NCBI GenBank assembly: GCA_050693875.1
Contig: JBOGWP010000095.1
Span: 9,232 to 73,231 of the forward strand
Length of the DNA stretch: 64,000 bases
DNA from: Actinomycetota bacterium
Lineage (GTDB): Bacteria > Actinomycetota > CADDZG01 > JAHWKV01 > JBOGWP01
Direction of reading: 5' to 3'
How positions within the stretch are numbered: position 1 is the first letter of the stretch; each line of letters starts with the position of its first letter. Below the pieces are notes generated by a model that had not been told where the DNA came from, searched no databases, and saw only the letters and a list, made by a program, of their open reading frames with translations. Position numbers and translations under genes: made by a program. Positions 4,998 through 44,386 of the stretch are shown one piece after another.

Positions 4998-6050
4998 TCA
5001 GTCCGAGGCGGCTCGGATCTCCTCTTGCCCCAGCGGCTCCTTCGCCGGCCCATGGACCACCGCGCCGTCGCGCGCATAGCGCGAGCCGTGGCAGGGACAG
5101 TCCCAGGTCTGCTCGGCGTCGTTCCAGTCCACGGTGCAGCCCATGTGGGTGCAACGAGGGGAGAGCGCGATCGCGATGCCCGAATCGTCGAGAGAGACGG
5201 CGAGCTTCCTGCCGTCCACATCGACCAGCCCGCCGTGGCCGGGGACGAGGTCGGCGAGGGAGCGCCCGATCGTCTTGGCGATCAGCACGTCACGGCCGGC
5301 CCCTTGGGCGACCTGCAGGGGGACTGCCCCGACGAAGAAGCGGCGGGCTCCGGCGACGCCCTTGTTGCCGACCACGATGAGGTCGCAGCCAGCTGCTTCG
5401 GCCACCTCGGGGATCTTCTCGCCCGGCGCGCCCTCCACGAGGCGTGTCTCCAGGCGCAGGGCCGGCACAGCTCCCGCGCCGGCGCGCTCGAGCGCGATCG
5501 CTCCGAGCAGCGGATCGCCTGCGACGTACACGAGGGTGACCCCCGCGCCCACCATCAGCCCGAGATCGAACGCTTTCCGCACCGCCTCGGTGGCGGTAGG
5601 CGAGCCGTCGGTTCCGGCGAGGATTCTTCGGTAGATCCGGGGGCCCGGCTGGTCGGGGGTTTCGTCTCGCGTGTGCACGATGAGCACATCGCAGGGGGCG
5701 GCGTGGGCGGTCTGCTCGGCGACGCTGCCGAGCTTGAACCGGTGGACCCTGCCCATCCCGACATTGCCCACCACGATGAGATCGGCGGCGACCTCGCTCG
5801 CGGCCTGGGCGAGGGCCTCCCCGGGGTCCCCGTCCCGAAGCGCCGTCTCGGCCGCGACCCCGTCGGCGCTGGCTGCCTCCGCCGCGGCGATCAGCGCCTG
5901 TTCGGAGCTGCTCGGCCTGGCACCCCGAGGCGCCGCCGTTGCGATCACGAGGCGGGCCCCCAGCCGCTTGGCCAGCCGCGCCGCCCGATGCTGGGCTCGC
6001 AGGGCGGTCTGCGAGCCATCGGTGCCGACGAGGATCGTGCGATAGCCCAC
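4998..6050 (-). CDS. Tandem universal stress protein (UspA) domains fused to a C-terminal Rieske [2Fe-2S] domain
   Basis: Two USP repeats ([11 protein letters not shown]...VGNVGMG...; [11 protein letters not shown]...VVGNKGVAG). C-terminal boxes CTHMGC ... CPCHGS are the canonical Rieske ligand boxes. Start taken as GTG 6048-6050, which has GGAG 9 nt upstream. The ORF-track ATG at 6098 adds 16 aa. Confidence 0.75.
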
Positions 6051-6054
6051 GGCG

Positions 6055-6843
6055 CTACTCCGCGACGAGGGTCCCCACCATCTGGCGGGGGTGCACATCG
6101 CAGACGAACGTATATTCGCCGGCCTCGAGCGCCGGGATGGCGTACCGGATCACCTTCGGTCCCGTGACGTTCGTCCCGGTGAAGACGGCCTTCCCCGACC
6201 CGTCACGGATCGAGACGTTGTGCAGCACGCCCGCGGCCTTGTTGGCGAACTCGAGGGCGAACGGCGTGGAGGCCGGCGCGGAGAGCCGGTCGGTGCTGAA
6301 CGCGAGCGCTCCTGCCGACAGCGTCACCCGGACCCCTGCCCCGGCCTGGGGCTCCGGCGCCGTGGGCGCGATCCCGAGCGTGGGCTTGAAGAGCATCAGG
6401 TAGAGGATCAGGGCAATGCCGATGCCGCCGATCGCCGCAAGCGTCACCGGCCGGCCGGAGGAGAGCACCTCGGCGAACTGCTCGTCGCTGACGGCTTTCG
6501 AGCCCTCCACCTTCGCGGCGCTGATCAGTCGAACCCGCTTGTAGTAGGGGGTGGCCATGCCGAACATCGCCCCCGATATGAGCACGAACAGCGCCAGCGA
6601 CGCCCAGATCCACCCGTAGGACCAGAGGTGCCCGACGAACGTGGCGGCGATGCCGCCCGCGAGCAGCAGCAGCACCGAGATGTAGAAGGACGTGATCGAG
6701 GCGCTCGACAAGGCAAGGAGCGCCTGCACGCGGGCGGGGTCGCGCTCCGAGCGAATCCGGAACGAAACGGCCATCGAGACGCCGTGCGTGGCCAGGAAGC
6801 CGAACACGCCGAACAGGTGAACGAAGACGAGCCACTGATACAT
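6055..6843 (-). CDS. DUF2269-family polytopic membrane protein fused to a C-terminal cupredoxin (type-1 copper) domain
   Basis: Start [21 protein letters not shown], four hydrophobic helices. C-terminal ...[19 protein letters not shown] carries the Cys/His/Met blue-copper ligand motif. Its stop is 4 nt before the USP-Rieske start, so the two are in one operon. Confidence 0.7.
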
Positions 6844-6972: not shown

Positions 6973-7482
6973 ATGTCCTGGTACAGGCTGCTGCTCTTCT
7001 TCCACATGCTGTTCGTGCTCGCAGGCTTCGGCCCCACGTTCGCCTTCCCATTCATCGGGGCCGCCGGCGGAAAAGAGCGCGAGCATGCGAACTTCGCCTT
7101 GCGAACCATGGAGCTCATCAGCAAGCGCCTGGTGATCCCGCTGTCCATCGGCGTCCTTGTGACCGGCGCCATCCTGATCCCGGTCGCAGGTTGGAACCTT
7201 CTGAGGAGCGAGTGGCTGCTGATCGCGCTGGTCCTCTACCTGACCGCGCTGGGCTACTCGGCGCTGGTCCAGAACCCGACCGCGATGCGGATGATCGAGC
7301 TCACCTCGAAGGTGCCCGGCGGCGAGGCCGCAGGATCAGCGCCGCCGGGACCACCTCCGGGAGGGCCCCCGCCCGAGATGCTCCGCCTGGTCAAGCGCAT
7401 GCAGCGCGGCGGCATCTTTCTGGCGCTGCTGTTGGTGACGATCCTGCTGCTGATGGTCTGGAAGCCCGGAGGGGAGCTTTAG
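6973..7482 (+). CDS. DUF2269-family membrane protein (paralog of the N-terminal part of the cupredoxin fusion)
   Basis: MSWYRLLLFFHMLFVLAGFGPTFAFPFIGAAGG..., four TM segments. Transcribed divergently from the cupredoxin gene. An alternative TTG start lies at 6934. Confidence 0.65.
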   Translation: MSWYRLLLFFHMLFVLAGFGPTFAFPFIGAAGGKEREHANFALRTMELISKRLVIPLSIGVLVTGAILIPVAGWNLLRSEWLLIALVLYLTALGYSALVQNPTAMRMIELTSKVPGGEAAGSAPPGPPPGGPPPEMLRLVKRMQRGGIFLALLLVTILLLMVWKPGGEL

Positions 7483-7588
7483 CGCTGAGGGCAGGCCTTG
7501 CGCGCGGAGCTCCCGATCCGCTTGCGGCGAGCGCCAAATACGGCGGTAGTTGCGAAGAGAGCGGGCGGGGTCAGGGCGGCCCGGCGGG

Positions 7589-8191
7589 TCAGGGCTCCAG
7601 CGCCCGGCGCACAAACTCGATCAGCTCCTGTTCCCGCCGTCGCAGGGTCGTCCGGCCCGTCTGCCCCCCGGCCACCGCTCGCAGCACTCCCGCCTCGGTG
7701 AGGGATCCCACCACCGCGGTGTAGAGCGTGAAGAGGAGGAGCCCGGGATCTTGGCGGCGGAACTCGCCGGCCTCCATGCCCCGCTCGAGGAACTGCAGCG
7801 CACGCTTTCGGAGGGGCTCCAGTGCGCCGGCAACCTGCGTCACGATCTCCGGGCTTCGCCGGGCGGCCTCGCGTGCGAACAGCGGGAACTCGGGGGAGCG
7901 CTCGGCGAGGCGGAACACGGAACGGATCACGCGCTCGACCCGCGCCCACCCTTCGTCGGGAGCCTCGAGCACGCGCTCGAGGGTGCGCCGGAGACCGGCG
8001 ACCATCTCCCCGACACAGGCGTCGAAGAGCTCCTCCTTCGTCGGGAAGTAGTAGAGAAGGGTCTGCTTCCGCACGCCGGCGGCCTCGGCCACCATCTCGA
8101 GGCTCGCCCCGTCGTACCCCCGCTTGCCGAACGCCCGGATCGCCTCGTCGATGAGCTGACGGCGGCGTTCCTCGCCTCCGGTCCGCGTCAC
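7589..8191 (-). CDS. TetR/AcrR family transcriptional regulator
   Basis: N-terminal HTH (RRRQLIDEAIRAFGKRGYDGASLEMVAEAAGVRKQTLLYYFPTKEELF). GTG start chosen at 8189-8191. The ORF-track ATG at 8371 would add 60 low-complexity residues. Confidence 0.75.
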   Translation of the reverse strand: MTRTGGEERRRQLIDEAIRAFGKRGYDGASLEMVAEAAGVRKQTLLYYFPTKEELFDACVGEMVAGLRRTLERVLEAPDEGWARVERVIRSVFRLAERSPEFPLFAREAARRSPEIVTQVAGALEPLRKRALQFLERGMEAGEFRRQDPGLLLFTLYTAVVGSLTEAGVLRAVAGGQTGRTTLRRREQELIEFVRRALEP

Positions 8192-8195
8192 GGGG

Positions 8196-9098
8196 TCAAC
8201 CGCGCCACAGCCGGACGGGACGTCGCTGCGGGAGGGATGCCGAAGCCTCCCACCGCCGGCGCCACCTCGCCGCCGAGGGGCCCGAAGTATCGGCCAGGGT
8301 GCCGTCGGCGGCAGCGCGGATCGCTTCCCACCAGGTGCCTCGCTGCTCCGCGAGCGTCGTGGCGAGCTCACGGCGAATCCGGTCGTGAAATGGCAGCACC
8401 CGCTCCTCCGGCTCGGGGCGAAGTGGCCTGCCGAACCTGACCGACACCGGCAGGTGCCCGGAGGCGGGCCAGCCGCGCCCGCGAGGCATGGCGTGGTAGG
8501 TGCCCGAGAGGGCCACCGGCACCACGGGCGTGCCGGTCTCGACCGCCATCCACGCCGCTCCGGACCGAAGGGCCGCCACCCATCCGTCCTTCGAGCGCGT
8601 CCCCTCGGGGAACACGATCACGTTCCACCCGTCCCGGAGCAGGTCCCGGGCCTTGCGTGCCGCCCGGCGCCCGGCCCGCCGGTCGACCGGGAAGGCGTTG
8701 AAGACGAGGGTCGTCATCGCGGCTCGCCACCAGACGTCGAAGAAGTAGTCGGCCGCTGCCCCGGTCGCGGTCCGCCACCGCCATTTCGGCGGGAGCGACG
8801 TGAGGATCGCCGGCGCGTCCAGGTGGCTTGCGTGGTTGCTCACGAAGATCACCGGAGGCTCGAGCTCGTCGAGCACGTCGAGGCCGTGTACCTCCACGTC
8901 GACCTCGTGGCGCAGCAGCGGCCCGAGGGCGAAGCGGTGGACGAGCTCGCGGGCGATGCGGGCCGCGGGCGTGCGCGCCCAGTCGGTCGGGTGCTCCGGA
9001 ACGAGCTCGGGGCCGCGGGGGACCGACCGGGGGACCAGTGGACGGTGCGTCCAGCGCCACCCCCGCGCGACCGTTCCGACGTCCTTGACCAGCCCCAC
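8196..9098 (-). CDS. 1-acyl-sn-glycerol-3-phosphate acyltransferase family protein (PlsC/LPLAT)
   Basis: HXXXXD block (VIFVSNHASHLDAPAI) and the FPEGTRS block are conserved. Confidence 0.8.
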   Translation of the reverse strand: MGLVKDVGTVARGWRWTHRPLVPRSVPRGPELVPEHPTDWARTPAARIARELVHRFALGPLLRHEVDVEVHGLDVLDELEPPVIFVSNHASHLDAPAILTSLPPKWRWRTATGAAADYFFDVWWRAAMTTLVFNAFPVDRRAGRRAARKARDLLRDGWNVIVFPEGTRSKDGWVAALRSGAAWMAVETGTPVVPVALSGTYHAMPRGRGWPASGHLPVSVRFGRPLRPEPEERVLPFHDRIRRELATTLAEQRGTWWEAIRAAADGTLADTSGPSAARWRRRWEASASLPQRRPVRLWRG

Positions 9099-9101
9099 GT
9101 G

Positions 9102-10805
9102 CTACCTCCCGGTCTCGGCGCGCCTCGCGGGCGACGCCGACGGATGACCCCGGCGGTGGCCGTTGGCCGAGTCGGGGGCGCTCAGTCGCCTGCCCCGCCG
9201 CGGCGGCGGGTCGGGGCTCTCGGCCTCGCCGCGCACGTCGGCGAGCAGCAGCGGCGGAACTTTCAGCGCCGTGATGGAGGGGGACGTCCCGACCGTCTCG
9301 GAGGCCATGTCGAGCGCGTCGGCGAACGTGCTCGCGGTACGGAAGCCGAGCCGCGCCACGGTCGACCGATCGGCGCCGACGAAGATGACGTCACCGAGGT
9401 AGTCGAACGCGTGCGCCGCCCAGTACCACATGTAGAAGGGGTGGACGCCGTGGTAGGCGTGGGAGTGCCGGTAGAGGTGGGTGTACCAGGAGTCGGTGGC
9501 GAACGACTCCTCGAACTTGCCCTCGATGACCGCCGGGTCGGTGGTCTCGGCGAGGACCTCGTCGAAGAAGTCGATGTACGAGGGGTGATGGATGTTGTGG
9601 AACTCCCGCGCGACCGGGTGGTACATGATCATCACGCCGCCCCGCCGCACCAGCGGCCGCCCCCGGTACATGTTGAAGAAGTACCCGAGCCCCTCGCACA
9701 CGACGAGGATGGGGTTCATGATCGAATTCACGTTGTAGGGGCCGATGTAGGGAAGTCCCGCCACCAAGATGTCGGCCTGGCCGGACACCTCCACCATCTG
9801 CTGGCGACGGACGGCCTCGAGGGTGCGCTCGTGGACCGCCTCGGTCTCGCCGGCGTTGATCCCGGTCACGCCGTAGGGCGAGTAGATCCTGGAGAAGATC
9901 GCCCGCTTGACCGCGGCGGGCGTGCGGTCGGTCGAGGCCTTGGTGGCGAGGAAGGCCGCCTGATCGGCGGCCGACCATTCCCACTCGCGCTTCTGCAGGA
10001 AGTCGAACGGCGCACCAAAGGTGTGGTTGTTGAGCGTGGTTTCGATCGTGAAGATCTTCAGGTGGTTGGCGAGCAGCTTTCCCATCCGATCGCAGGAGGA
10101 GTGGAGCGCCGACGCCGGCGGGTCCATGTAGGACCTCGAGTGCAGCATCGTGTGGACGTTGTGGTGGTGGCGCAGGCTACGGTACGAGCCGAGGCCGACG
10201 GGGACGCTCTTGTGCCCGCCGTCCATCGCCACCAGGTTGATGTTCACGTAGACGAGCAGGTCGCTCTCGGCGGCGCGCTTGCTGATCTCGACGTCCTCGC
10301 CCTGGTCGGTGGCGCCGATGTAGGTCAGGTTGGGCCGGTCCTCGGCATCGAAGTTGGTGAGGTCGTCGGGCCAGAACGAGCGGAACACCCGCTCACCTAC
10401 CGCTCGCTTGATCTCCGCGGCAGTCATTCGGCGGTGGAGGGAGTTCGCCACCATGAGCTTGACGTTGTCGACGCCGGCCTGGGCGGCGAGCTCGAGCACG
10501 CGCTCGATCACCCGGCCGCGGATGTCGGGGGTCTGCATCGGCGGCAGCGGGAGTGAGATGTCGTCGAAGGCGATCGTGAGGCGCATGCCCGAGCGCAGCA
10601 GGGCCCGCAAGGGCTCCGATCCGTGCGGGTGCTCGAGCGCGTGGTCGATGGCGGCGTCGACGTCTCGGATGCCCGGCAGCGGTTCGGGCGGGTAGACGAC
10701 CCGGCTGCCGAGCGGCAGCTTCTGGAGCCGGAAGCCCTCGCCGTAGTGAAACAGCGTTGGCGGCGTCCGCTCGTCCACCTCGAGCACAAAACCCGGTCTG
10801 CTCAC
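9102..10805 (-). CDS. LarA-like protein (DUF2088 N-terminal domain; nickel-pincer-cofactor 2-hydroxyacid racemase/epimerase family)
   Basis: 567 aa from a GTG at 10803-10805 with a GAGGGGGG Shine-Dalgarno. This GTG lies 14 nt after the upstream ADH stop. The LarA-type segment DGGHKSVPVGLGSYRSL carries the conserved Lys, followed by a His cluster RHHHNVH. Confidence 0.6.
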   Translation of the reverse strand: MSRPGFVLEVDERTPPTLFHYGEGFRLQKLPLGSRVVYPPEPLPGIRDVDAAIDHALEHPHGSEPLRALLRSGMRLTIAFDDISLPLPPMQTPDIRGRVIERVLELAAQAGVDNVKLMVANSLHRRMTAAEIKRAVGERVFRSFWPDDLTNFDAEDRPNLTYIGATDQGEDVEISKRAAESDLLVYVNINLVAMDGGHKSVPVGLGSYRSLRHHHNVHTMLHSRSYMDPPASALHSSCDRMGKLLANHLKIFTIETTLNNHTFGAPFDFLQKREWEWSAADQAAFLATKASTDRTPAAVKRAIFSRIYSPYGVTGINAGETEAVHERTLEAVRRQQMVEVSGQADILVAGLPYIGPYNVNSIMNPILVVCEGLGYFFNMYRGRPLVRRGGVMIMYHPVAREFHNIHHPSYIDFFDEVLAETTDPAVIEGKFEESFATDSWYTHLYRHSHAYHGVHPFYMWYWAAHAFDYLGDVIFVGADRSTVARLGFRTASTFADALDMASETVGTSPSITALKVPPLLLADVRGEAESPDPPPRRGRRLSAPDSANGHRRGHPSASPARRAETGR

Positions 10806-10818
10806 CTCGTGACCCCCC

Positions 10819-11994
10819 TCATGCGTCCAGCCTGGGATCGAACGCCACCTTGACCGCCCCAAGCTTCCCTGCCGAGAAGGCATGGTCGATCGCCTCCCGG
10901 AAGCGAGCGAGAGGATATGCGGCGGCGACGAGCTTGCCCAGCTCCGCCTCGGCGCAGAGCTCCATCGATTCGTCGAACGCACCCGTCCCCGAGTAGGAGC
11001 CGGTGAGCTCCAGCTCGCGGAACCAGGCCGGCGACAGGTCGGCCCCGGCGGGCATCCCGGAGAGCACGACCCGGCCCCCGGCGCGCGTCGCCCGCAGCGC
11101 CAAGTCGAGCGCGCTCGCCGAGCCGGCGCACTCGAAGGAGATGTCGGCCCCCCCCAGCAGGAACGACGAGCCAAGCTGTGGATCGAGGCGGAAGGCCCGC
11201 GTCGAGCGGCGCACCGCGCCGAGGGCGTCGTCGACGCCGACGGCCTCGGCGCCCCAGGCCCGCACGAGATCCGCCTGGCCTCTGTGCTTCGCCACGACGA
11301 GCACCCGTCCGGCCTCGGCGCGCGCCCGCAGGGCGATGAGGGTCAGAAGGCCGACGGAGCCGGCACCGACGATCAGCACCGTGGCGTCGCGCTCGACCCG
11401 CGCCCGTCGGACGGACCGGATCGCACAGGCGAGCGGCTCGACCAGCACCGCGGTCTCGTCGGCCAGGTCGTCGGGCACCCGGTGCATCTGCGAGCGGTGG
11501 GCGACCATCAGCGCGCTCCACCCTCCGCCGGTGTCGTGGCAGTAGCCGGTCTGGAGGCCGGCGGCGAGGTGGCCGGCGGCGACGCGCTCGCAGCGCCCCT
11601 GCTGGCCGGAGGCGCACGGCGGGCAGGCAGGGTCGATCCCGCGGGCGGCGCAGCCGAGGATGGGGTCGATGACCACGCGCTGGCCCGCCCGCAGGTCCTC
11701 GCAGTCGTCGGCGAGGCGGGCCACCACCTCGTGCCCCGGCACGAAGGGCATCGAGACCAGCGCCGTGAAGTAGAGGCTGGCCCCCCCCGAGAGCGTGTTG
11801 AGGTCGGAGCCGCAGATCCCCGAGAGCAGCGGGCGCAGCCGCGCCCATCCCCTGCCCTCGACTCGCGGTTCCTCGCGGTCGACGAGGCGCAGCGGGGCGA
11901 CCGGCGCAGACAGGAGGCCGGGTACCCGCGACGAGATCGCCCGCGAGGCGACGTAGCGCGGGATCGACCGGAACATCTCGACGGCGAGCGTCAT
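10819..11994 (-). CDS. Zn-dependent medium-chain alcohol dehydrogenase (sorbitol/threonine-DH-like)
   Basis: MTLAVEMFRSIPRYV...LLSGICGSDLN...GHEVVARL... and an NAD fold (LIVGAGSVGLLT). Its ATG overlaps the stop of the upstream FAR-HAD gene (ATGA). The upstream part of ORF-track entry 10819..12261 is shadow sequence. Confidence 0.8.
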   Translation of the reverse strand: MTLAVEMFRSIPRYVASRAISSRVPGLLSAPVAPLRLVDREEPRVEGRGWARLRPLLSGICGSDLNTLSGGASLYFTALVSMPFVPGHEVVARLADDCEDLRAGQRVVIDPILGCAARGIDPACPPCASGQQGRCERVAAGHLAAGLQTGYCHDTGGGWSALMVAHRSQMHRVPDDLADETAVLVEPLACAIRSVRRARVERDATVLIVGAGSVGLLTLIALRARAEAGRVLVVAKHRGQADLVRAWGAEAVGVDDALGAVRRSTRAFRLDPQLGSSFLLGGADISFECAGSASALDLALRATRAGGRVVLSGMPAGADLSPAWFRELELTGSYSGTGAFDESMELCAEAELGKLVAAAYPLARFREAIDHAFSAGKLGAVKVAFDPRLDA

Positions 11995-14282
11995 CGGTGG
12001 GCCCGGACGCGCGACGCCCCATCGAGCGACAAGGGCTCGGGCGGAGGCGAAGGGATGAGGATGCGCGGCGTTCCCGGGTCGGCCGGCCACTCCTCCATCG
12101 GCCAGCGGCGCCGGCGGGCGATCCGTTGCAGCGCGACTTCGGCGTTCACCGCGACCGGATGCCCCACCGCTTGGAGGAGCGGCAGGTCGGTCATCGAGTC
12201 GGCGTAGCCGTACGACTTCGAGAGGTCGGCCCCGACCGCCTCGGCATAGCCGCGAAGCCACGAGGCGCGAGCCTCGCCGACCAGCGGGGGCTGATCCATG
12301 TCGCCGGTGAACACTCCGTCCTCGACGCGCAGCTTGGCGCCGATCAGCTCGTCGGCCAGCGGCGCCAGTGGCTCGATGCAGAAGTCGAGCGCGGCGGTGA
12401 TGAGTACCACGACGTGCCCGGCGGCCCGATGCTCACGGATCCGGCGGACGGCGGCCGGGAACGTCCTGCGAAGCACGAGCTCGCCCAGGATCTCGGCCGA
12501 CATCGCACGTACCTGTTCCTCCGGAACCCCCTCGTACAGGCGGTAGAAGCGCCGCAGGAACTCGCCGCGGTCGCGCCGCTCGGCCTTCAGGAATCCCGGG
12601 CCGCGCATCGCCAGCGCGGCGACCTCCCTGAGCCGGCCGCCGAGCCCCTCGACCTCCGACATGCGAAGCCAGAGGTAGGGCTCGAGGACGTTGGAGTCGA
12701 TGATGGTGCCGTCGATGTCGAGGACGGCGAGCACCGGGCGGCCTGGATCCTCGGCGGGACGAAGCTTGACCGTTGGGGTGCCCGGACGGAACGAGGGGCC
12801 GCGCATGGCCTTCGTCACCGCCGGCATGTGGAGCTCCTCGAGGTAGTGCTTCCAGGAGAACGCGGCGGCGTCGAAGGGGAAGTCGCGGCGATCGTCGCCG
12901 GAGAGCGACGCGAGCAGCGCCTGGACGTTGCGGTCGACGTGGATCACCTCCGCCTCGACGTAGGCCCCGTACAGCTCGGCGTAGCGCTTGATGAAATCGA
13001 ACTGGCCGCGGAGCCTGTCGACCCGCTGTGCGGTGTCGCGGGCGAGCTTGTTGCGGGGAAGGCGGGCGACCACCCGCTCGGCGGTGCGAAGCACCTTCTC
13101 CGCAGTCACCATCCTCCGCTGGACCGCCTGCTTCCCCGGAAAGCTCCACTCCGGCACCTTGTAGAAGCCTCGGTTGGTCTCGGGAAGCGGGTGGGCGAGG
13201 AAGTAGCTGCGCGTGTGCTCGTACATGTCCCGGTACTTGAGCGGGTTGCGCGTGCCGGAGCACACCTGGAAGACGGCCCGGCGCTCGCCGGAACCGGCGA
13301 GAGGCCGGGCGGCGGCGGCCAGGAGCGCGTTCACCACCAGGTCGACCGGAATGATGTCGAGCACGCCCTCGGGGATGCCGGCGAACTCAGGGAGGGCGCC
13401 GCGGCCGAAGGCGAGGATCAGCGGCTCCGCCATCCGGAAGCCCTCGATCCAGCCCGGGTGCGGTCGCTCGAGGGCGCTCTCGATGATCGACGGCCGGACG
13501 ATGATCAGCTGGTTGTCGCCGGCGAGCTCGTCGAGCGCCATCTCGGTGAGCGCCTTGGTGAAGGCGTACACGTCCGGCCATCCGAGGCTGCGTGCCCGGG
13601 CGCGCCCGTAGTCGACGAGGCGGGACTTGATCCACTCCTTGCGAAGGTCCTCGGCCCGGCCGGCGATCGCCTGGGGGCCGACCCGGCTGCGCTCGGCTCG
13701 CCCCTGCGCCAGGAAGCGCCGCAACGCCTCCGGGGTGCGCGACTCGTGCTCGACCTCGGCGCGCATCCGCTCGGCGGCCGCAGCCTCGGCTCGCCAGTCG
13801 GCCTTCTTCCCGAGCAGCTCCTCGGTCTGGGTGCCGCGCGTGAGGCCGGCGACGTAGGCGGTGGAGACGTGAACGAACGGACGGCCGGCGCAGCCTTCGT
13901 AGAGGCGCACCGAACCCCACAGGTTCGTTCGGAAGGCGTCGTCGATCGGTGGGTCGAACTGCACCGTGGCCGCGGTGTGGATGACGAGGTCGACGTCGTC
14001 GGCGACCGGCGGGGGCCCTGCGGAGAGGTCCGCGGTGACCATGCGCACCTTCTCCTCGAAGAGCCTATCGATGGCCGCACGCCCGATGCGCTCCACGGCC
14101 GGGTCGAAGGCGGAGCTGTTCTTCAGACCCTTCAGCCGGGAGCTCGGGTTGCCGCGCACTACGAGGTCGAGGCGGGCGACCGGGGTGTCAACGAGGAGCC
14201 GCTCGAGCAGGGCCGTCCCGAGGAACCCCGTGACCCCTGTGAGGAGGATGCGCTTGCCCGCGAGCGCGTCGCGAATACCCAA
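11991..14282 (-). CDS. Fatty acyl-CoA reductase (male-sterility/NAD-epimerase fold) fused to a HAD-IB hydrolase domain
   Basis: N-terminal KRILLTGVTGFLGTALLERL Rossmann fold, ...YAFTKALTEMAL... FAR-type core, and a C-terminal VLDIDGTIIDSNV HAD motif I. TTG start at 14280-14282 with GGGAG 7 nt upstream. Confidence 0.75.
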   Translation of the reverse strand: MGIRDALAGKRILLTGVTGFLGTALLERLLVDTPVARLDLVVRGNPSSRLKGLKNSSAFDPAVERIGRAAIDRLFEEKVRMVTADLSAGPPPVADDVDLVIHTAATVQFDPPIDDAFRTNLWGSVRLYEGCAGRPFVHVSTAYVAGLTRGTQTEELLGKKADWRAEAAAAERMRAEVEHESRTPEALRRFLAQGRAERSRVGPQAIAGRAEDLRKEWIKSRLVDYGRARARSLGWPDVYAFTKALTEMALDELAGDNQLIIVRPSIIESALERPHPGWIEGFRMAEPLILAFGRGALPEFAGIPEGVLDIIPVDLVVNALLAAAARPLAGSGERRAVFQVCSGTRNPLKYRDMYEHTRSYFLAHPLPETNRGFYKVPEWSFPGKQAVQRRMVTAEKVLRTAERVVARLPRNKLARDTAQRVDRLRGQFDFIKRYAELYGAYVEAEVIHVDRNVQALLASLSGDDRRDFPFDAAAFSWKHYLEELHMPAVTKAMRGPSFRPGTPTVKLRPAEDPGRPVLAVLDIDGTIIDSNVLEPYLWLRMSEVEGLGGRLREVAALAMRGPGFLKAERRDRGEFLRRFYRLYEGVPEEQVRAMSAEILGELVLRRTFPAAVRRIREHRAAGHVVVLITAALDFCIEPLAPLADELIGAKLRVEDGVFTGDMDQPPLVGEARASWLRGYAEAVGADLSKSYGYADSMTDLPLLQAVGHPVAVNAEVALQRIARRRRWPMEEWPADPGTPRILIPSPPPEPLSLDGASRVRAHR

Positions 14283-14414
14283 ACCGGCTCCCTGGTGTCT
14301 TTCTACCGAACGGTAGATTATTCATGCGTGGCGGGCGCCGCAAGTTGCGGTTCCCGCCGTCCGGGCTCGTCGAAGGGTGCGAGGGCGCCGGAAGGCCGGG
14401 GCGTCCTCAAGGTT

Positions 14415-14506
14415 CGGGCCACGCTCCCCGCGCCCGCCTCGACGGGGAACCGGACGGGAGCGGGCCACGCTCCCCGCGCCCGCCTCGACGGGGAACCGGA
14501 CGGGAG
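14415..14506. repeat. Perfect 46-bp tandem direct repeat (2 copies plus a 4-nt start of a third)
   Basis: cgggccacgctccccgcgcccgcctcgacggggaaccggacgggag occurs at 14415-14460 and identically at 14461-14506. It lies between the histidine kinase stop (14515) and the FAR-HAD start (14282). Confidence 0.9.
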
Positions 14507-14514
14507 CGGGGCGG

Positions 14515-15729
14515 TCAACGCATCTCGTTCTCGTCGATGCCCAACACGATCGGAACCCTCGCCTCGACCCGGGTGCCTCCCTCCGGGTGCGGGGCGATCT
14601 CGAAGGTCCCCCCGGCGATCTGGACGCGCTCGCGCATCGTCTCGACGCCGTAGTGCCCGTGGCGATGGATCTGCTCGGGTGTGATGCCGCGGCCGTCGTC
14701 GTCGACGATCAGCACCGCCGTCTCCCGGTCGAGCGATAGCGTCACGCACACGGTCCCGGCCTTCGCGTGGCGGACGACGTTGCGGAGAGCCTCCTGCGCG
14801 ACGCGGTAGAGGATCGTCTCCAAGGTCTGGCCGAACCGGCGACCGTGGGTCTCGTCGCGCCACTCTGCCTGCAACCGCCCCTCGGCCGCGATCTGGTCGA
14901 CCATCGCCTTCAGCGTGGCGCCGAGGCCGACCTGGTCGAGGGAGAGCGGACGGACCTCGAAGATGAAGTCGCGCAGAGCCTCCATCTCCTCCTGGATTCC
15001 TTCCTGCATCGACTCGACGACCTCCACGCCCCGGGCAACGTCGCCGCCGGCCAGCCGCATCTTGGCGAGCTCGGCCTTCAGGAAGAGCGCCGTGAGGTCC
15101 TGGAGGAAGCCGTCGTGGATGTCGGCGGCGATGCGCCGGCGCTCGCGCTCCTGTGCCTGGATCACGGCGGCCAGCAGCTGGGTGACCCGTGCCTCCCGGT
15201 CGCGCAGCCGACTGTAGAGGCCGGCGCGCTCGGCGGCGAGCGCGGCGAGGTCGGCGAGGGACTCGGCCAGCCGCAGGTCCTCGTCCTTGAATCGAGCACC
15301 AGTGCGTCGCACGAGGTTCAGCACCCCGACCACCCGGCCCGTCACCGCCATGGGGAGCGACAACGCCGAGCCCAGCCCGGCGTCGACGCCCTCGAAGCGA
15401 TCGTCGTCGACGTCGCCGTGGAGCACGACCGGGTCGTTGTGCTCCGCCACCCATCCAGCGATCCCGTGACCGAGCGGTGTCCGGACGCCCAGCGCTTCGG
15501 GAGGAAGACCGGCCGCGCAGCGGACTTCGAGGTGGCCCGAGTCGTCGAGGAGCATCACCGATCCCCGGTCGGCGGCGAGCGCCTCGGTGAGCAGGTCCAA
15601 GGTCAGGCGCAGCTGGTCCTCGAGCTCGATCGCTCCCAGGAGGGAGCGCGCCACGCGGGCAACGATGGCGAGGTCGCGCCGGTTGCGCGCCGCGTCCGCG
15701 TTGGCTTGCTCCTGGTTCCCGTCAGGCAT
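14515..15729 (-). CDS. GAF-domain sensor histidine kinase (HisKA_3 + HATPase_c; NarL-partner type), orphan
   Basis: A GAF region (LLGAIELEDQL...), an H-box (ERRRIAADIHDGFLQDL) and an ATPase region (VRHAKAGTVCVTLSLDRETAVLIVDDDGRGI). Start taken at MPDGNQ (15727-15729). Starts further upstream would overlap the divergent glucokinase gene. Confidence 0.75.
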   Translation of the reverse strand: MPDGNQEQANADAARNRRDLAIVARVARSLLGAIELEDQLRLTLDLLTEALAADRGSVMLLDDSGHLEVRCAAGLPPEALGVRTPLGHGIAGWVAEHNDPVVLHGDVDDDRFEGVDAGLGSALSLPMAVTGRVVGVLNLVRRTGARFKDEDLRLAESLADLAALAAERAGLYSRLRDREARVTQLLAAVIQAQERERRRIAADIHDGFLQDLTALFLKAELAKMRLAGGDVARGVEVVESMQEGIQEEMEALRDFIFEVRPLSLDQVGLGATLKAMVDQIAAEGRLQAEWRDETHGRRFGQTLETILYRVAQEALRNVVRHAKAGTVCVTLSLDRETAVLIVDDDGRGITPEQIHRHGHYGVETMRERVQIAGGTFEIAPHPEGGTRVEARVPIVLGIDENEMR

Positions 15730-15802
15730 ACGGTCTGAACTTCGTCCCGGGCCCCGGCTCGCTTGAGCGTCGGCGGGAAGCCGCCTCGTATACTCGCCGT
15801 CC

Positions 15803-16735
15803 ATGCCGCTCGCCGCCGCAGCCGACGTCGGTGGGACGAAGGTCTTCGCCGCCCTCGTCGACGACGCCGGCTCGATCCACGGCGACACCGTGGAGATCGC
15901 CACCGATCGCGCTGCGGGCACCGCCTCGGCGATCGCCGCGCTCCAACGACTGCTCGAAATGAACGGGGAGAAGGTGCAGGCGGTCGGGGTCGCTGCCGCC
16001 GGCTTCGTCGAGCACCCGCGGGGCCGGATCGCGTTCGCTCCCAACCTCATCTACGACCGGCCGGAGCTCCGCCAGGCGGTGCACGAGGCCCTTCTGCTTC
16101 CCACCATCGTGGAGAACGACGCCAATGCAGCCGCCTGGGGCGAAACCCGGTTCGGTGCGGGCCGGGGGACGGCCGAGGTGCTCATGCTCACCGTCGGGAC
16201 CGGGATCGGCGGTGGCATCGTGACATCGGGTCGGCTCCACCGAGGCGCTCGCGGTTTCGCCGCCGAGGTCGGGCACATCAGGCTGGTGGAGGGGGGGCCG
16301 GAGTGCGCCTGCGGGCAGCGCGGGCACCTCGAGGCGCTCGCGTCGGGGTCGGCGATCGGCAGGATGGCGCGCGAGGCCCTGGCCAGAGGTGAGACGTCTC
16401 TCATCACCGAGCTCGCCGACGGCGGTGAGGTCTCCGGAGCTCTGGTCACGAAGGCCGCGCTGGAGGGTGACGCGCTGGCCAGGTCGGTCCTCGAACGCGC
16501 GGGTCGGTGGCTGGGGATAGGGCTGGCGAACCTCGTGAACGTTCTCGATCCCGGGCTGATCGTCATCGGTGGGGGCGCCGCGGTGGCCGGAGCGCTGCTG
16601 CTCGATCCCGCCGCCGACGAGCTCGCCATCCGGCTCGAGGGGCGCCGCGAACCGCCTCCGATGACGCAGGCGAGGCTGGGCAACCGCGCCGGGGCGATCG
16701 GAGCGGCGTCGCTTGCCCTCGAGCTCACGGGCTGA
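15803..16735 (+). CDS. glk: ROK-family glucokinase
   Basis: ADVGGTKVFAALVD..., ...LTVGTGIGGGIV..., and the zinc motif CACGQRGHLEALASG. Confidence 0.85.
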   Translation: MPLAAAADVGGTKVFAALVDDAGSIHGDTVEIATDRAAGTASAIAALQRLLEMNGEKVQAVGVAAAGFVEHPRGRIAFAPNLIYDRPELRQAVHEALLLPTIVENDANAAAWGETRFGAGRGTAEVLMLTVGTGIGGGIVTSGRLHRGARGFAAEVGHIRLVEGGPECACGQRGHLEALASGSAIGRMAREALARGETSLITELADGGEVSGALVTKAALEGDALARSVLERAGRWLGIGLANLVNVLDPGLIVIGGGAAVAGALLLDPAADELAIRLEGRREPPPMTQARLGNRAGAIGAASLALELTG

Positions 16736-34061: not shown

Positions 34062-35549
34062 CTAGGAGTCGTCGTCTCGGGAGGGCGACAGGAGCTCCCC
34101 GCTCGGCCTCAGGTGGGCGCCGCCTGCGGCGTAGTGCCGGAGCCGCTCCTGGCCCTCGGGTGAGAGCATCTCGACGGCGTCGAAGAACACCTTCCCCCGC
34201 GCGGCCCGCAGCGCGGCATCTCCGGCGCTCCCCCGGTGCGGCAGGTCGGTGGACAGGAGCACCAGCGGCCGGGGGGCGAAGTCGCCCGAGGCGAGAACCC
34301 CCGCCTTTCCGAGCGCCTTCCACAGCGTGTCGGTGCGGCGCAGCCCCGCCCGGGTGGTCGTGAAGGCCCCCGAGACGTCGAAGTGCCAGACCTCGCCGTG
34401 GCGGTCCTTGGCGAGGAAGGTGACCTCGATCCCGGTTGGCATCCGGCGGTCCTCGACGATCTCGGAGAACCCGCAGTCCTCGAGGACGGCGCGCGCGATC
34501 TCCCTGGCCTTCCGCCCTTCCCGCACGGCCCGTGCCTGGAAGCTCTCGTCGTCGGCCTGCTGGCCGGTGGGGAGGGCGGGGAGCACGACGCGCGGGTGAG
34601 CCGACTGCCACCCCGACCGAGCCGCCACCCGTGCGCGCTCCTCGTCGACGCGGCGGTTGGATGACTCGACGTAGGACGCATCGGTGTCGTATCCGGCGAA
34701 GCGGCGCTCGGTCCGCAGCGCGGCAATCGCGGTTGAGCCGCTGCCCATGAACGGGTCGAGCACGAGGTCGCCGCGATAGGTGTAGAGCTCGATCAGCCGC
34801 TGGGGGAGCTCGACCGGGAAGGGGGCGGGGTGGCCGACCCGGGTGGCGGACTCGGGCGGGATCTCCCACAGGTCGGTGGTCGCCTCCATGAAATCGTCGG
34901 TGAACATCGAGGCCTCGGAGGGGAGCCCCATCGACGCCCGCTCGCGGCGAGAGATGGCTCGGCTGAAGCGGCCCTTCGAGGCGACGACCACGCGCTCGGT
35001 CAGGTCGCGGAGAACCGGGTTTGCCGGGCTCTGGAACGAGCCCCAGGCGCACGAGCCGGTGGCGCCGCGGGCCTTCTGCCATATGATCTCGCCCCGCAGC
35101 AGCAGGCCGAGGCGGTCCTGCAGGATCCCGATCACGTCTGCCGAGAGCGAGCGGTAGGGCCGGCGGCCGAGGTTGGCGACGTTGACCGCGATCCGCCCTC
35201 CCGGCTCGAGCTTGTCGACGCAGCATGCGAAGACCTCGGTCAGCAACTCGAGGTACTCGAAGTAGGTGGCCGGTACGCCGCCCTCGCCGAGCGCCTGCTC
35301 GTACTCCTTGCCGGCGAAGTAGGGAGGGGAGGTGACGACGAGGGCGACGGAGGCCGGCGGGAGCTCGTCCATCCGCCGCGCATCGCCCCGACGGATCCAA
35401 TCGAGCCCGAGGGGCGGGTGCACGATCTCGTCGCTCGAGAGCTGCGGAGGGGTGAAGCGGGAGTAGAAGAATGAGGAGTCGTGGCTCTCGCGCCGCCCGA
35501 CGCCGAATGGGGAGGTGGACGTGGGCTTTCGCCGCCTGCCGACGCTCAC
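34062..35549 (-). CDS. Beta-class DNA methyltransferase (N4-cytosine or N6-adenine; motif IV SPPY before motif I) with ~150-aa C-terminal extension; no adjacent restriction enzyme
   Basis: Motif IV (VVTSPPYF), ...GRIAVNV..., motif I (DPFMGSGSTAIAA). The C-terminal EIVEDRRMPTGIEVTFLAKDRHGEVWHFDVSGAF... is of unknown family. Confidence 0.8.
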   Translation of the reverse strand: MSVGRRRKPTSTSPFGVGRRESHDSSFFYSRFTPPQLSSDEIVHPPLGLDWIRRGDARRMDELPPASVALVVTSPPYFAGKEYEQALGEGGVPATYFEYLELLTEVFACCVDKLEPGGRIAVNVANLGRRPYRSLSADVIGILQDRLGLLLRGEIIWQKARGATGSCAWGSFQSPANPVLRDLTERVVVASKGRFSRAISRRERASMGLPSEASMFTDDFMEATTDLWEIPPESATRVGHPAPFPVELPQRLIELYTYRGDLVLDPFMGSGSTAIAALRTERRFAGYDTDASYVESSNRRVDEERARVAARSGWQSAHPRVVLPALPTGQQADDESFQARAVREGRKAREIARAVLEDCGFSEIVEDRRMPTGIEVTFLAKDRHGEVWHFDVSGAFTTTRAGLRRTDTLWKALGKAGVLASGDFAPRPLVLLSTDLPHRGSAGDAALRAARGKVFFDAVEMLSPEGQERLRHYAAGGAHLRPSGELLSPSRDDDS

Positions 35550-43438: not shown

Positions 43439-44386
43439 GTGCCGCACAACCCGCTCGACCATGCACTGTTCGCTCCGACCGGACTCCGGGCGGGGGCCGT
43501 GCTGGCGGCGGCACTGCTGCTGATCCTGATCCTCGAACGCGGGCGTCCCCGTCCGGACTCGCCCCTGTTCCAGCGGCTGTCGTCGTGGGCGGTGATGGCC
43601 CCGGTGTTCACGGCCGCGGTGCTGACCGGCGGGGCGGCCGCCCTTGCGCTGGTGGTATTCATGACCGTGCAGGCCCTGCGGGAATACGCTGGGCTCGTTC
43701 GGCTCGCCCGCGTCTACGCCGGCCTCCTCATCGCCTACGGCGTGTTCGGCCTCGGGGTGACCGCCTGGTGGGGGCAGCGCTTCTTTCTCTTCCTTCCGCT
43801 CGGATTCTTCGCCCTCGCGGCCCTGCTGCCGCTGGTCCGCCTCGCCCGGGGCCCGGACGAGAGCCGGACGCCGTACGGGGAGCTCCTCCAGCTGGCCGCG
43901 ATGGTGCTGGGCTACCTGTGGATCCCGATGTTCCTCTCCTACTTCGTGCTCATCCAGCGCACCGAGGACGAGGGCGCCGCGATCCTCCTGCTGCTCGGAT
44001 TCGCGGTCGCGCTCTCGGACGTCTTCGCGTTCACGCTCGGCAAGCTGCTGCGCGGCCCGCGGCTCGCCACCGGCGTCAGCCCGAACAAGACCTGGGCGGG
44101 GGCGGCGGGAAACCTCGTCGGGGCGTATGTCGGATTCTCGATCATGGGGTTCGCCACCCCGGCCGAGTGGAGCTCCGCCACCCGTATCGTGCTCCCCGCC
44201 GTGGTCGCGCTCGCCGCCCTCTACGGCGATCTCATCGAGTCGCTCGTGAAGCGCGGGTTCGGCGTGAAGGACGCCGGTGGGCTGCTGCCCGGATTCGGGG
44301 GGTTGCTCGACCGCATCGACTCGCTGCTGGTGGCACTCCCGATCGGCTACTACGCGATGAAGGTGCTGCAGCACTACACCGCCTGA
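43439..44386 (+). CDS. cdsA: Phosphatidate cytidylyltransferase
   Basis: SPNKTWAGAAGNLVGAY...LLPGFGGLLDRIDSLL C-terminal signature. GTG start. Confidence 0.85.
   Translation: MPHNPLDHALFAPTGLRAGAVLAAALLLILILERGRPRPDSPLFQRLSSWAVMAPVFTAAVLTGGAAALALVVFMTVQALREYAGLVRLARVYAGLLIAYGVFGLGVTAWWGQRFFLFLPLGFFALAALLPLVRLARGPDESRTPYGELLQLAAMVLGYLWIPMFLSYFVLIQRTEDEGAAILLLLGFAVALSDVFAFTLGKLLRGPRLATGVSPNKTWAGAAGNLVGAYVGFSIMGFATPAEWSSATRIVLPAVVALAALYGDLIESLVKRGFGVKDAGGLLPGFGGLLDRIDSLLVALPIGYYAMKVLQHYTA

Follow-up and report, generated by a model that had tools for sequence, protein, structure and literature searches.

Among aerobic bacterial routes to ether lipids, the elb pathway is the main one. In Myxococcus xanthus it is encoded by elbABCDE, which corresponds to MXAN_1531 to MXAN_1527, with elbD being MXAN_1528 (PMC13012113). 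According to a review that summarizes Lorenzen et al. (2014), this organism needs ElbD for its alkyl and vinyl ether lipids, and fatty aldehyde, not alcohol, is detected in the wild type and not in elbD mutants, while ElbC is described in reviews as a protein of unknown function (PMC9131029). In the classification of LarA homologues (LarAHs), MXAN_1529 is listed as a myxobacterial member of group 15 (Desguin et al., 2020, Dataset S2, PMC7583248), and since elbA to elbE run from MXAN_1531 to MXAN_1527, ElbC is MXAN_1529 and hence a LarA homologue. The genomic context of group 15 comprises two COG0451 reductases, COG0560, and a long-chain acyl-CoA synthetase (Desguin et al., 2020, supplement), and that of group 14 is tabulated as COG0204, COG0560, and COG1063 (88% each) with COG3320 (50%), under the heading of unknown function (Desguin et al., 2020, Table S1, PMC7583248). 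The locus described here lies in a 64,000-nucleotide (64-kb) stretch of contig JBOGWP010000095.1 from an Actinomycetota bacterium (the window) and joins two orphan problems, namely LarAH groups 14 and 15, with negative assays and a context tabulated but left uninterpreted, and the formation of the ether bond by the elb operon.

The locus is an operon on the minus strand at positions 7589-14282, where open reading frame (ORF) calls give five tightly coupled genes. They run from a fatty acyl-CoA reductase fused to a HAD phosphatase (FAR-HAD) through a zinc alcohol dehydrogenase (Zn-ADH), a LarA-like protein, and a PlsC-like acyltransferase to a TetR regulator. Judged by homology, this actinobacterial cassette is a re-partitioned elbB-elbC-elbD core, with the Zn-ADH in place of the short-chain dehydrogenase/reductase (SDR) enzymes of the myxobacterial operon. 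We infer, with a probability of about one half, that the cassette serves as a TetR-repressed, elb-like pathway dependent on nickel-pincer nucleotide (NPN) as its cofactor and leading to alkyl-ether (1-O-alkyl) glycerolipids. Its features are:

14282-11991, minus strand: FAR-HAD fusion gene, 763 aa, TTG start with a GGGAG ribosome-binding site upstream
12795-14282, minus strand: FAR domain, residues 1-496 of the fusion, fatty acyl-CoA/acyl carrier protein (ACP) reductase with Rossmann GxxGxxG and YxxxK motifs
12096-12731, minus strand: HAD-IB phosphatase domain, residues 518-729 of the fusion, motif I DIDGT
11994-10819, minus strand: Zn-ADH gene, 391 aa, ATG start overlapping the FAR-HAD stop as ATGA
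10805-9102, minus strand: LarA-like (ElbC-type) gene, 567 aa, GTG start 13 nt past the ADH stop
9098-8196, minus strand: PlsC-like gene, 300 aa, GTG start 3 nt past the TAG of the LarA-like gene
8191-7589, minus strand: TetR gene, last of the operon, 200 aa, GTG start 4 nt past the PlsC stop
14302-14317, no strand: candidate TetR operator in an AT-rich patch, the perfect palindrome TCTACCGAACGGTAGA, separated by 20 nt from the start codon of the downstream FAR-HAD gene

Purine-rich stretches resembling Shine-Dalgarno sequences precede the FAR-HAD, LarA-like, and PlsC starts, and the five genes are one translationally coupled unit. An earlier note on this DNA had described five co-directional, coupled genes at these positions, an ADH start codon overlapping the FAR-HAD stop, and a gap of 4 nt between the PlsC and TetR genes, all of which the coordinates and junctions bear out; it had placed the LarA-like GTG 14 nt after the ADH stop, where the actual spacing is 13 nt. 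Profile searches with Pfam and NCBIfam agree with each of its domain assignments (FAR, HAD, ADH, LarA-like, PlsC, and TetR).

The LarA-like protein matches Lar_N (Pfam, E 1e-38) and spans the full length of the NCBIfam model NF052592 'LarAH14/15/16' (model positions 1-520/520) with 897.8 bits against a cut-off of 740. It is 69% identical, without gaps over 397 aa, to the LarAH14 of Frankia (Franean1_4168), with which it shares the signature residues and the gene context (COG0204, COG0560, COG1063, and COG3320), and is a member of group 14. Purified and supplied with cofactor, Franean1_4168 was inactive on seven 2-hydroxy acids, namely lactate, 2-hydroxyisovalerate, 2-hydroxyisocaproate, malate, 2-hydroxyglutarate, gluconate, and phenyllactate (Desguin et al., 2020, PMC7583248). 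In alignment with LarA_Ip, residues D82, H124, K199, and H215 correspond to Asp70, His107, Lys183, and His199, which are the ribose-binding aspartate, the first catalytic histidine, the NPN-tethering lysine, and the nickel-ligand histidine, respectively (roles per Gatreddi et al., 2025, PMC12611868). L85 takes the place of the carboxylate-binding Arg73/75, and N190 sits opposite the second catalytic His173/174 in alignments to 9EIA and 9Q2U, a position that is a gap in the alignment of Desguin et al.; positions 187-192 are free of histidine in all 72 family sequences compared. The published group 14 signature is I or L at R75, gaps at H174 and F175, and Asn at K298 (Desguin et al., 2020, PMC7583248). 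Residues D81, D82, H124, R125, R126, N188, K199, H214, H215, and N216 are invariant in the 72 sequences, ElbC included.

The closest solved structures by sequence are LarA-like enzymes that have one catalytic histidine (E 1e-30 over both domains), and the C-terminal half of the protein aligns with residues 265-463 of 9q2u. All 19 significant Foldseek matches of the predicted fold in the PDB are LarA-family structures, with 9q3k and 9q3j as the best; the AlphaFold model behind them was built from 12 sequences, has a mean pLDDT of 66 with active-site loops 192-232 below 50, and serves for fold assignment only. One single-histidine LarA-like enzyme has been solved with NPN loaded, and its lysine is described as a covalent tether (PMC12611868). 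Like LarA_Sp and LarA_Bw (PDB 9Q2U/9Q3K and 9Q3J; PMC12611868), the window protein keeps the tether lysine, the nickel-ligand histidine, and one catalytic histidine, has Asn at the position of the second histidine, and is in the size range of about 500 aa. However, its identity to them is about 20-23%, it has Leu where they have Lys at the Arg73/75 position, and its context is lipid-related where theirs is that of carbohydrate and glycolysis genes. Lactiplantibacillus plantarum LarA (5HUQ) has the same fold and the same NPN-binding residues, but the window protein lacks the second catalytic histidine and the carboxylate-binding Arg/Lys and is about 100 aa longer. The LarA-like protein is thus predicted to be an NPN-dependent enzyme with a single catalytic histidine. 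A canonical 2-hydroxy-acid racemase function was considered and rejected, and racemization of 2-hydroxy acids is not expected, because Arg75 is replaced by Leu, Lys298 by Asn, and the second histidine is gone.

This bears directly on the pathway that the earlier note had proposed, in which the LarA homologue would set the stereochemistry of a 2-hydroxy fatty acid, the FAR domain would convert it to a 1,2-diol, and PlsC would acylate the resulting long-chain 1,2-diol or 2-hydroxyalkyl backbone, of a type typical of thermophiles. In its favor, the locus does encode intact versions of all three (a FAR domain, an enzyme of the LarA superfamily, and an acyltransferase), and long-chain 2-hydroxy acids lie outside the seven substrates on which LarAH14 was assayed. 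However, the equivalents of Arg75, Lys298, and the second catalytic histidine are absent family-wide, LarAH14 was inactive on those seven, and the homologue in myxobacteria is linked with ether lipids of glycerol and not with diols. Clustering of flanking ORFs in 82 loci also gives no conserved fatty-acid 2-hydroxylase near the cassette. Moreover, the cassette is found in at least 598 species, mostly mesophilic Actinomycetota that are not known for diol lipids, a spread of the kind that the earlier note had itself said would count against its proposal; we know of no report of diol lipids from the cassette-bearing genera. A 1,2-diol product is therefore very improbable. The broader suggestion of the same note, a role in building lipids, is backed by the FAR domain, the PlsC-type acyltransferase, and homology to a proven lipid operon.

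The family core of the LarA-like protein comprises residues 1-525 (nt 9231-10805), and a C-terminal extension of 42 aa, peculiar to this lineage, runs beyond the 525-aa norm. This tail (window 9105-9230) is Pro/Arg-rich, begins past the usual end '...LLADVR', and leaves 3 nt between its end and the PlsC start. It is also part of the NCBI protein for the contig, and one related locus (L005) has a similar extension, whereas the stop lies about 130 nt earlier in most relatives.

The likeness of the cassette to the elb operon extends to four of its parts. The LarA-like protein is 48% identical to ElbC over 520 aa (pairwise blastp), and ElbC matches NF052592 too, with 848.8 bits. In blastp comparisons, the HAD domain (residues 519-729) is 33% identical to ElbB (E 5.5e-35), which matches TIGR01490 as does the window domain; the FAR domain is 26% identical to residues 7-541 of ElbD (E 1.6e-36), and the PlsC-like protein is 31% identical to residues 1230-1404 of ElbD (E 1.1e-22). 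By Pfam, the M. xanthus locus (L085) is laid out as Epimerase, HAD, Lar_N, a NAD_binding_4-Sterile-AMP-binding-PP-binding-Acyltransferase protein, and a second Epimerase. A LarAH14/15/16-family protein, a TIGR01490 HAD-IB protein, a FAR of NAD_binding_4 plus Sterile type, and a PlsC/AGPAT domain are co-transcribed in both systems.

Despite this, the parts are divided differently. The FAR is fused to the HAD domain in the window and to the acyltransferase in ElbD, and the acyltransferase is a separate gene in the window and a C-terminal domain in ElbD. ElbD also carries adenylation and carrier domains that the cassette lacks, and the substrate here would presumably be acyl-CoA or acyl-ACP directly. 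Where M. xanthus has the SDR ketoreductase-like pair ElbA and ElbE, which resemble OleD/HpnA-type ketoreductases, the cassette has a single polyol-type Zn-ADH; the latter has no homologue among the elb proteins, and none of the five proteins matches ElbA or ElbE (blastp). A TetR gene with a candidate operator is attached in the window lineage, and the host belongs to the Actinomycetota, a phylum without documented ether lipids. In the searchable literature, no paper connects lactate racemase or nickel-pincer chemistry with ether lipids or plasmalogens, nor is ElbC described there as a nickel enzyme of the LarA family; an earlier remark on the fold of ElbC is possible (Lorenzen et al., 2014; Desguin et al., 2014). 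Each on its own, the elb operon and the gene family with its genomic context were known before. Relative to the literature found, the assignment of ElbC to the LarA-family nickel enzymes, the actinobacterial cassette as an elb variant, the linkage to larBCE, and the TetR operator are new.

The linkage to larBCE concerns the NPN cofactor. In 20 of 85 loci, larB, larC, and larE, each above its NCBIfam cut-off, adjoin the cassette within a few kb (L013, L020, L021, L026, L029, L036, L038, L041, L050, L051, L058, L062, L064, L066, L068, L071, L073, L075, L080, and L082). They lie upstream and divergent in some loci and downstream on the opposite strand in others (for example, L058 3484-6386 and L068 3430-5966), and the carriers include Actinomadura, Micromonospora, Actinoplanes, Actinoallomurus, Haloechinothrix, and metagenome-assembled genomes (MAGs) of Pseudonocardiales. 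By strong guilt-by-association, this argues that the LarA homologue of the cassette uses the NPN cofactor. No larBCE genes were found within 10 kb of the M. xanthus elb operon.

Frankia also encodes a group 16 LarAH paralogue (FRAAL3757, Francci3_2278) that adjoins PlsC and HAD-IB genes and has Gly in place of the NPN-tethering Lys (Desguin et al., 2020, Dataset S2). This paralogue may belong to the same lipid module and either lack the cofactor or bind it non-covalently.

The catalytic motifs of the other enzymes of the operon are also intact, as judged from about 40-70 orthologues compared per protein. The FAR domain matches NAD_binding_4 (E 2.7e-41, 141.9 bits, Pfam), and its C-terminal 'Sterile' domain scores 30.9 bits, below the Pfam threshold of 35.4. 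The solved fatty acyl-CoA reductase 7eoz aligns with residues 2-496 of the fusion (E 1e-49), and the motifs TGVTGFLG (GxxGxxG) and YAFTK (YxxxK) are conserved in about 70 orthologues. The PlsC-like protein matches the Acyltransferase family PF01553 (E 1.6e-22) and Thermotoga maritima PlsC 5kym (E 2e-17), with its HX4D (NHASHLD) and FPEGTRS motifs invariant in 38 orthologues. A FAR and an acyltransferase suffice for wax-type esters, and an ester-only neutral or polar lipid has to be weighed here, in which the FAR and ADH would make a fatty alcohol, the PlsC-like enzyme would esterify it to a product resembling a wax ester or to an acylated alcohol-phosphate, and the LarA-like protein would play only a subsidiary part in redox chemistry. 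The TetR control and the stress-gene neighbors of the operon (Usp and a GAF histidine kinase) would fit such a storage or stress lipid. However, PlsC/AGPAT enzymes normally acylate acceptors of the glycerol-phosphate type, not free fatty alcohols, and this explanation, which is unlikely, leaves the strictly conserved NPN enzyme, the HAD-IB domain, the polyol-type ADH, and the homology to elb unaccounted for.

The HAD domain matches PF12710 (E 5e-35) and the HAD-IB model TIGR01490 (119 bits against a cut-off of 98), its nucleophile Asp522 is invariant in 73 of 73 orthologues, and the fused FAR-HAD architecture is seen in 72 related loci. The Zn-ADH is a medium-chain enzyme of the polyol-dehydrogenase type (ADH_N plus ADH_zinc_N, Pfam) in which the catalytic zinc ligands C61/H88/E89 and the structural Cys124/127 are conserved in orthologues. 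Its closest solved relatives are ketose reductase 1e3j, sorbitol dehydrogenase 1pl6, and L-idonate 5-dehydrogenase 6dkh; the nearest characterized relatives act at C2 of polyols and ketoses, with secondary alcohols or ketones on polyol backbones as substrates. The resemblance to sorbitol, idonate, and arabinitol dehydrogenases, and that of the HAD-IB domain to phospho-serine and histidinol-phosphate phosphatases, would also suit a scheme in which a sugar or polyol phosphate is the substrate of both the LarA-like enzyme and the ADH, and acyl or alkyl chains are attached to a polyol head or backbone other than glycerol, yielding an unusual polyol lipid. However, clustering of flanking ORFs shows no conserved sugar kinase, transporter, or glycosyltransferase beside the cassette, the identity of the LarA-like protein to LarAHs of sugar context is about 20% against 48% to ElbC, and the sole experimental anchor, elbD, points to glycerol ether lipids. 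A polyol lipid is accordingly quite unlikely.

The distribution of the cassette bears on its coherence as a unit. A scan of one genome per species with family-specific peptides matched at least 598 species; the best 80 of these are all Actinomycetota. Carriers include Frankia, Nocardioides, Kribbella, Actinomadura, Actinoallomurus, Thermomonospora, Micromonospora, Actinoplanes, Phytohabitans, Haloechinothrix, Jiangellaceae, and Acidimicrobiales MAGs, and are mostly mesophilic soil genera. The loci span Frankiales, Propionibacteriales, Streptosporangiales, Micromonosporales, Pseudonocardiales, the family Jiangellaceae, and Acidimicrobiales (class Acidimicrobiia), and the LarA-like protein, which itself comes from an Actinomycetota MAG, has thousands of close metagenome relatives. 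The order FAR-HAD, ADH, LarAH, PlsC is unchanged in 84 related loci, and in all 79 further Actinomycetota genome loci examined, wherever the contig covers it, and a chance juxtaposition of genes was rejected because this order is kept across orders. The conserved unit is the four-gene cassette, because clustering of flanking ORFs yields no further neighbor family in more than 11 of 82 loci. The neighbors that were found are lineage-specific (TetR, larBCE, aldehyde dehydrogenase, and, in Kribbella, a P450 with a methyltransferase). The earlier note had considered that the activities combined here do not normally co-occur; their association is already present in Table S1 of Desguin et al. (2020), where group 14 goes with the COGs of PlsC, HAD-IB, Zn-ADH, and thioester reductase, and in the elb operon.

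Some of these neighbors are of interest in their own right. An aldehyde dehydrogenase (Aldedh) lies just downstream of the cassette in eight loci (L010, where it is 563 aa long at 7399-9090, and seven others), which would fit a fatty-aldehyde intermediate. In one MAG lineage (L002 13798-19501; also L003 and L004), the cassette is followed by a type II fatty-acid-synthase set with a malonyl transferase, a FabH-like ketoacyl-ACP synthase (KAS) III, two FabG-like reductases, ACP, KAS I/II, and a phosphopantetheinyl transferase; an ECF sigma factor precedes this set. Together, the fatty-acid-synthesis genes and the aldehyde dehydrogenase hint weakly at a lipid context. The P450 and methyltransferase of the Kribbella loci lie upstream of the cassette (for example, L019 3740-5606).

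For the ether bond itself, the alternative to elb is the FAR-GNPAT-AGPS pathway of eukaryotes, which M. xanthus also encodes (MXAN_1676-1674) in an operon of AGPS, a FAR-acyltransferase fusion, and an SDR (PMC9131029; PMC13012113). This pathway shares with the cassette a FAR, a PlsC-superfamily acyltransferase, a 2-keto ketoreductase, and a phosphatase step, but the cassette contains no AGPS flavoenzyme and has the ElbC-type NPN enzyme in the distinguishing slot. Since the elb operon has ElbC and ElbB instead of AGPS, the NPN enzyme may be taken as the obvious candidate for the ether-forming step. In the proposed ether-lipid pathway, the FAR domain would reduce acyl-CoA or acyl-ACP to a fatty aldehyde (or alcohol). 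The ElbC-type enzyme, as the counterpart of AGPS, would then, speculatively, take a hydride from the C2 hydroxyl of a glycerol-phosphate-type acceptor; removal of the hydride would either let a hemiacetal derived from the aldehyde become an alkyl ether or, in the manner of the AGPS route, generate a 2-keto intermediate that is only transient. The polyol-type Zn-ADH would reduce the resulting 2-keto group, standing in for the short-chain ketoreductases ElbA and ElbE, the PlsC-like enzyme would acylate the backbone, and the HAD-IB domain would strip the phosphate.

Several points weigh against this pathway. To our knowledge, ether lipids have not been reported from any cassette-bearing genus; routine chemotaxonomy by fatty acids and thin-layer chromatography would miss them. 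Neither Pfam searches of about 35 ORFs nor tblastn found larB, larC, or larE in the 64-kb window. No AMP-binding or PP-binding domains occur in the five proteins (Pfam) or are conserved nearby, and blastp found no counterparts of the ElbA and ElbE reductases in the cassette. The position two residues after the HAD nucleophile is Asp in 40 of 73 orthologues and Glu in 33, which leaves phosphatase chemistry less than certain. The myxobacterial anchor is itself narrow, for only ElbD, and probably ElbE, have been shown to matter in M. xanthus; the review puts the effect of an elbB insertion down to polarity and describes no mutant of elbC (PMC9131029). Some elb-like clusters of sponge symbionts hold only elbD and elbB homologues, and ElbC is perhaps not universally required. 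Finally, Pontiella has ElbD homologues, and no ether lipids were detected in it.

Confidence in the ether-lipid pathway consequently differs by layer, being much higher for the homology statements than for the product class and low for the detailed mechanism. A further-reaching version holds that ElbC/LarAH14-type proteins are AGPS-independent ether-bond formers, in which a nickel-pincer hydride shuttle joins a fatty aldehyde to glycerol-phosphate, and that hundreds of soil Actinomycetota make such lipids; this is tentative and rather doubtful. Even so, ElbC as a LarA-family nickel enzyme in a widespread module gives a testable hypothesis of a non-carboxylate, lipid-related substrate for an NPN enzyme, with a nickel requirement for ether-lipid synthesis as a testable consequence. 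Culturable and genetically tractable carriers exist in Kribbella, Micromonospora, and Nocardioides. If the hypothesis is true, aerobic soil Actinomycetota would contain nickel-dependent, TetR-gated alkyl ether lipids overlooked by routine chemotaxonomy and would be an unrecognized soil source of non-isoprenoid alkyl glycerol ethers, and more bacteria would come into question as producers of ether-lipid biomarkers.

The regulator at the end of the operon matches TetR_N (E 1e-15) and is weakly similar to the lipid regulators FasR and FadR. With at most one mismatch allowed, the core of its candidate operator, TCTACC-N4-GGTAGA, is present upstream of FAR-HAD in 13 of 13 loci with a linked TetR gene and in none of 56 without (Fisher p 2.6e-14), and 25 of its 28 occurrences in 1.5 Mb of loci are at this position. 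In TetR-carrying loci the core often occurs as two copies about 25 nt apart, and where the TetR gene is divergent (L024 and L079) it lies within the shared intergenic region. The TetR protein, on the strength of this pattern, is a lineage-specific add-on that very probably represses the operon, and it would leave the operator once a lipid-like ligand builds up. The designation of the locus as a TetR-linked operon in the earlier note therefore stands for the window; as a general trait it does not, as TetR is lineage-specific and only about 16 loci have it as a fifth gene running in the same direction. A scan for sigma-70 promoters gave no match, and the terminator-like matches are the operator palindrome itself.

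One locus departs from this arrangement. In L069 (2139-2194), a pair of operator palindromes lies in a 370-nt gap between the FAR-HAD and ADH genes, not upstream of FAR-HAD, which suggests a different boundary of the transcription unit.

Around the operon, the G+C content of the window is 71% and flat, with no compositional break. A mobile or horizontally acquired island was considered and rejected, given the flat G+C of about 0.71 and flanks of unrelated core genes (Suf, UvrABC, GAPDH, and TIM). At lower coordinates, downstream of TetR, are SufB, a Usp-Rieske protein, and cupredoxin/DUF2269 proteins. At higher coordinates, upstream of FAR-HAD, are a GAF-HisKA_3 kinase, a ROK kinase, MoxR/DUF58, a class A penicillin-binding protein, a copper ATPase, UvrA/B/C, a CdsA-like cytidylyltransferase, GAPDH, TIM, and Opp transporters. 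An Rfam scan gave no family within 7000-15000.

The genes flanking the operon include a GAF-HisKA_3 sensor kinase of DosS/DevS-like architecture (14515-16050, minus strand) and a fusion of tandem universal-stress domains with a Rieske domain (4998-6098, minus strand). Other genomes do not conserve this neighborhood of stress or dormancy type. Between the GAF histidine-kinase stop (14515) and the operator/promoter region of the operon lies a perfect 46-nt tandem duplication (14415-14510; 2.1 copies, 100% match) that is G+C-rich and self-complementary and may be a duplicated terminator hairpin. About 30 kb away, between uvrA and uvrC, the window encodes a CdsA-like phosphatidate cytidylyltransferase (43439-44386, plus strand; CTP_transf_1, E 9e-48), which probably serves ordinary phospholipid synthesis. 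A 495-aa N6/N4 DNA methyltransferase (34062-35549, minus strand) is encoded between the copper ATPase and uvrB.

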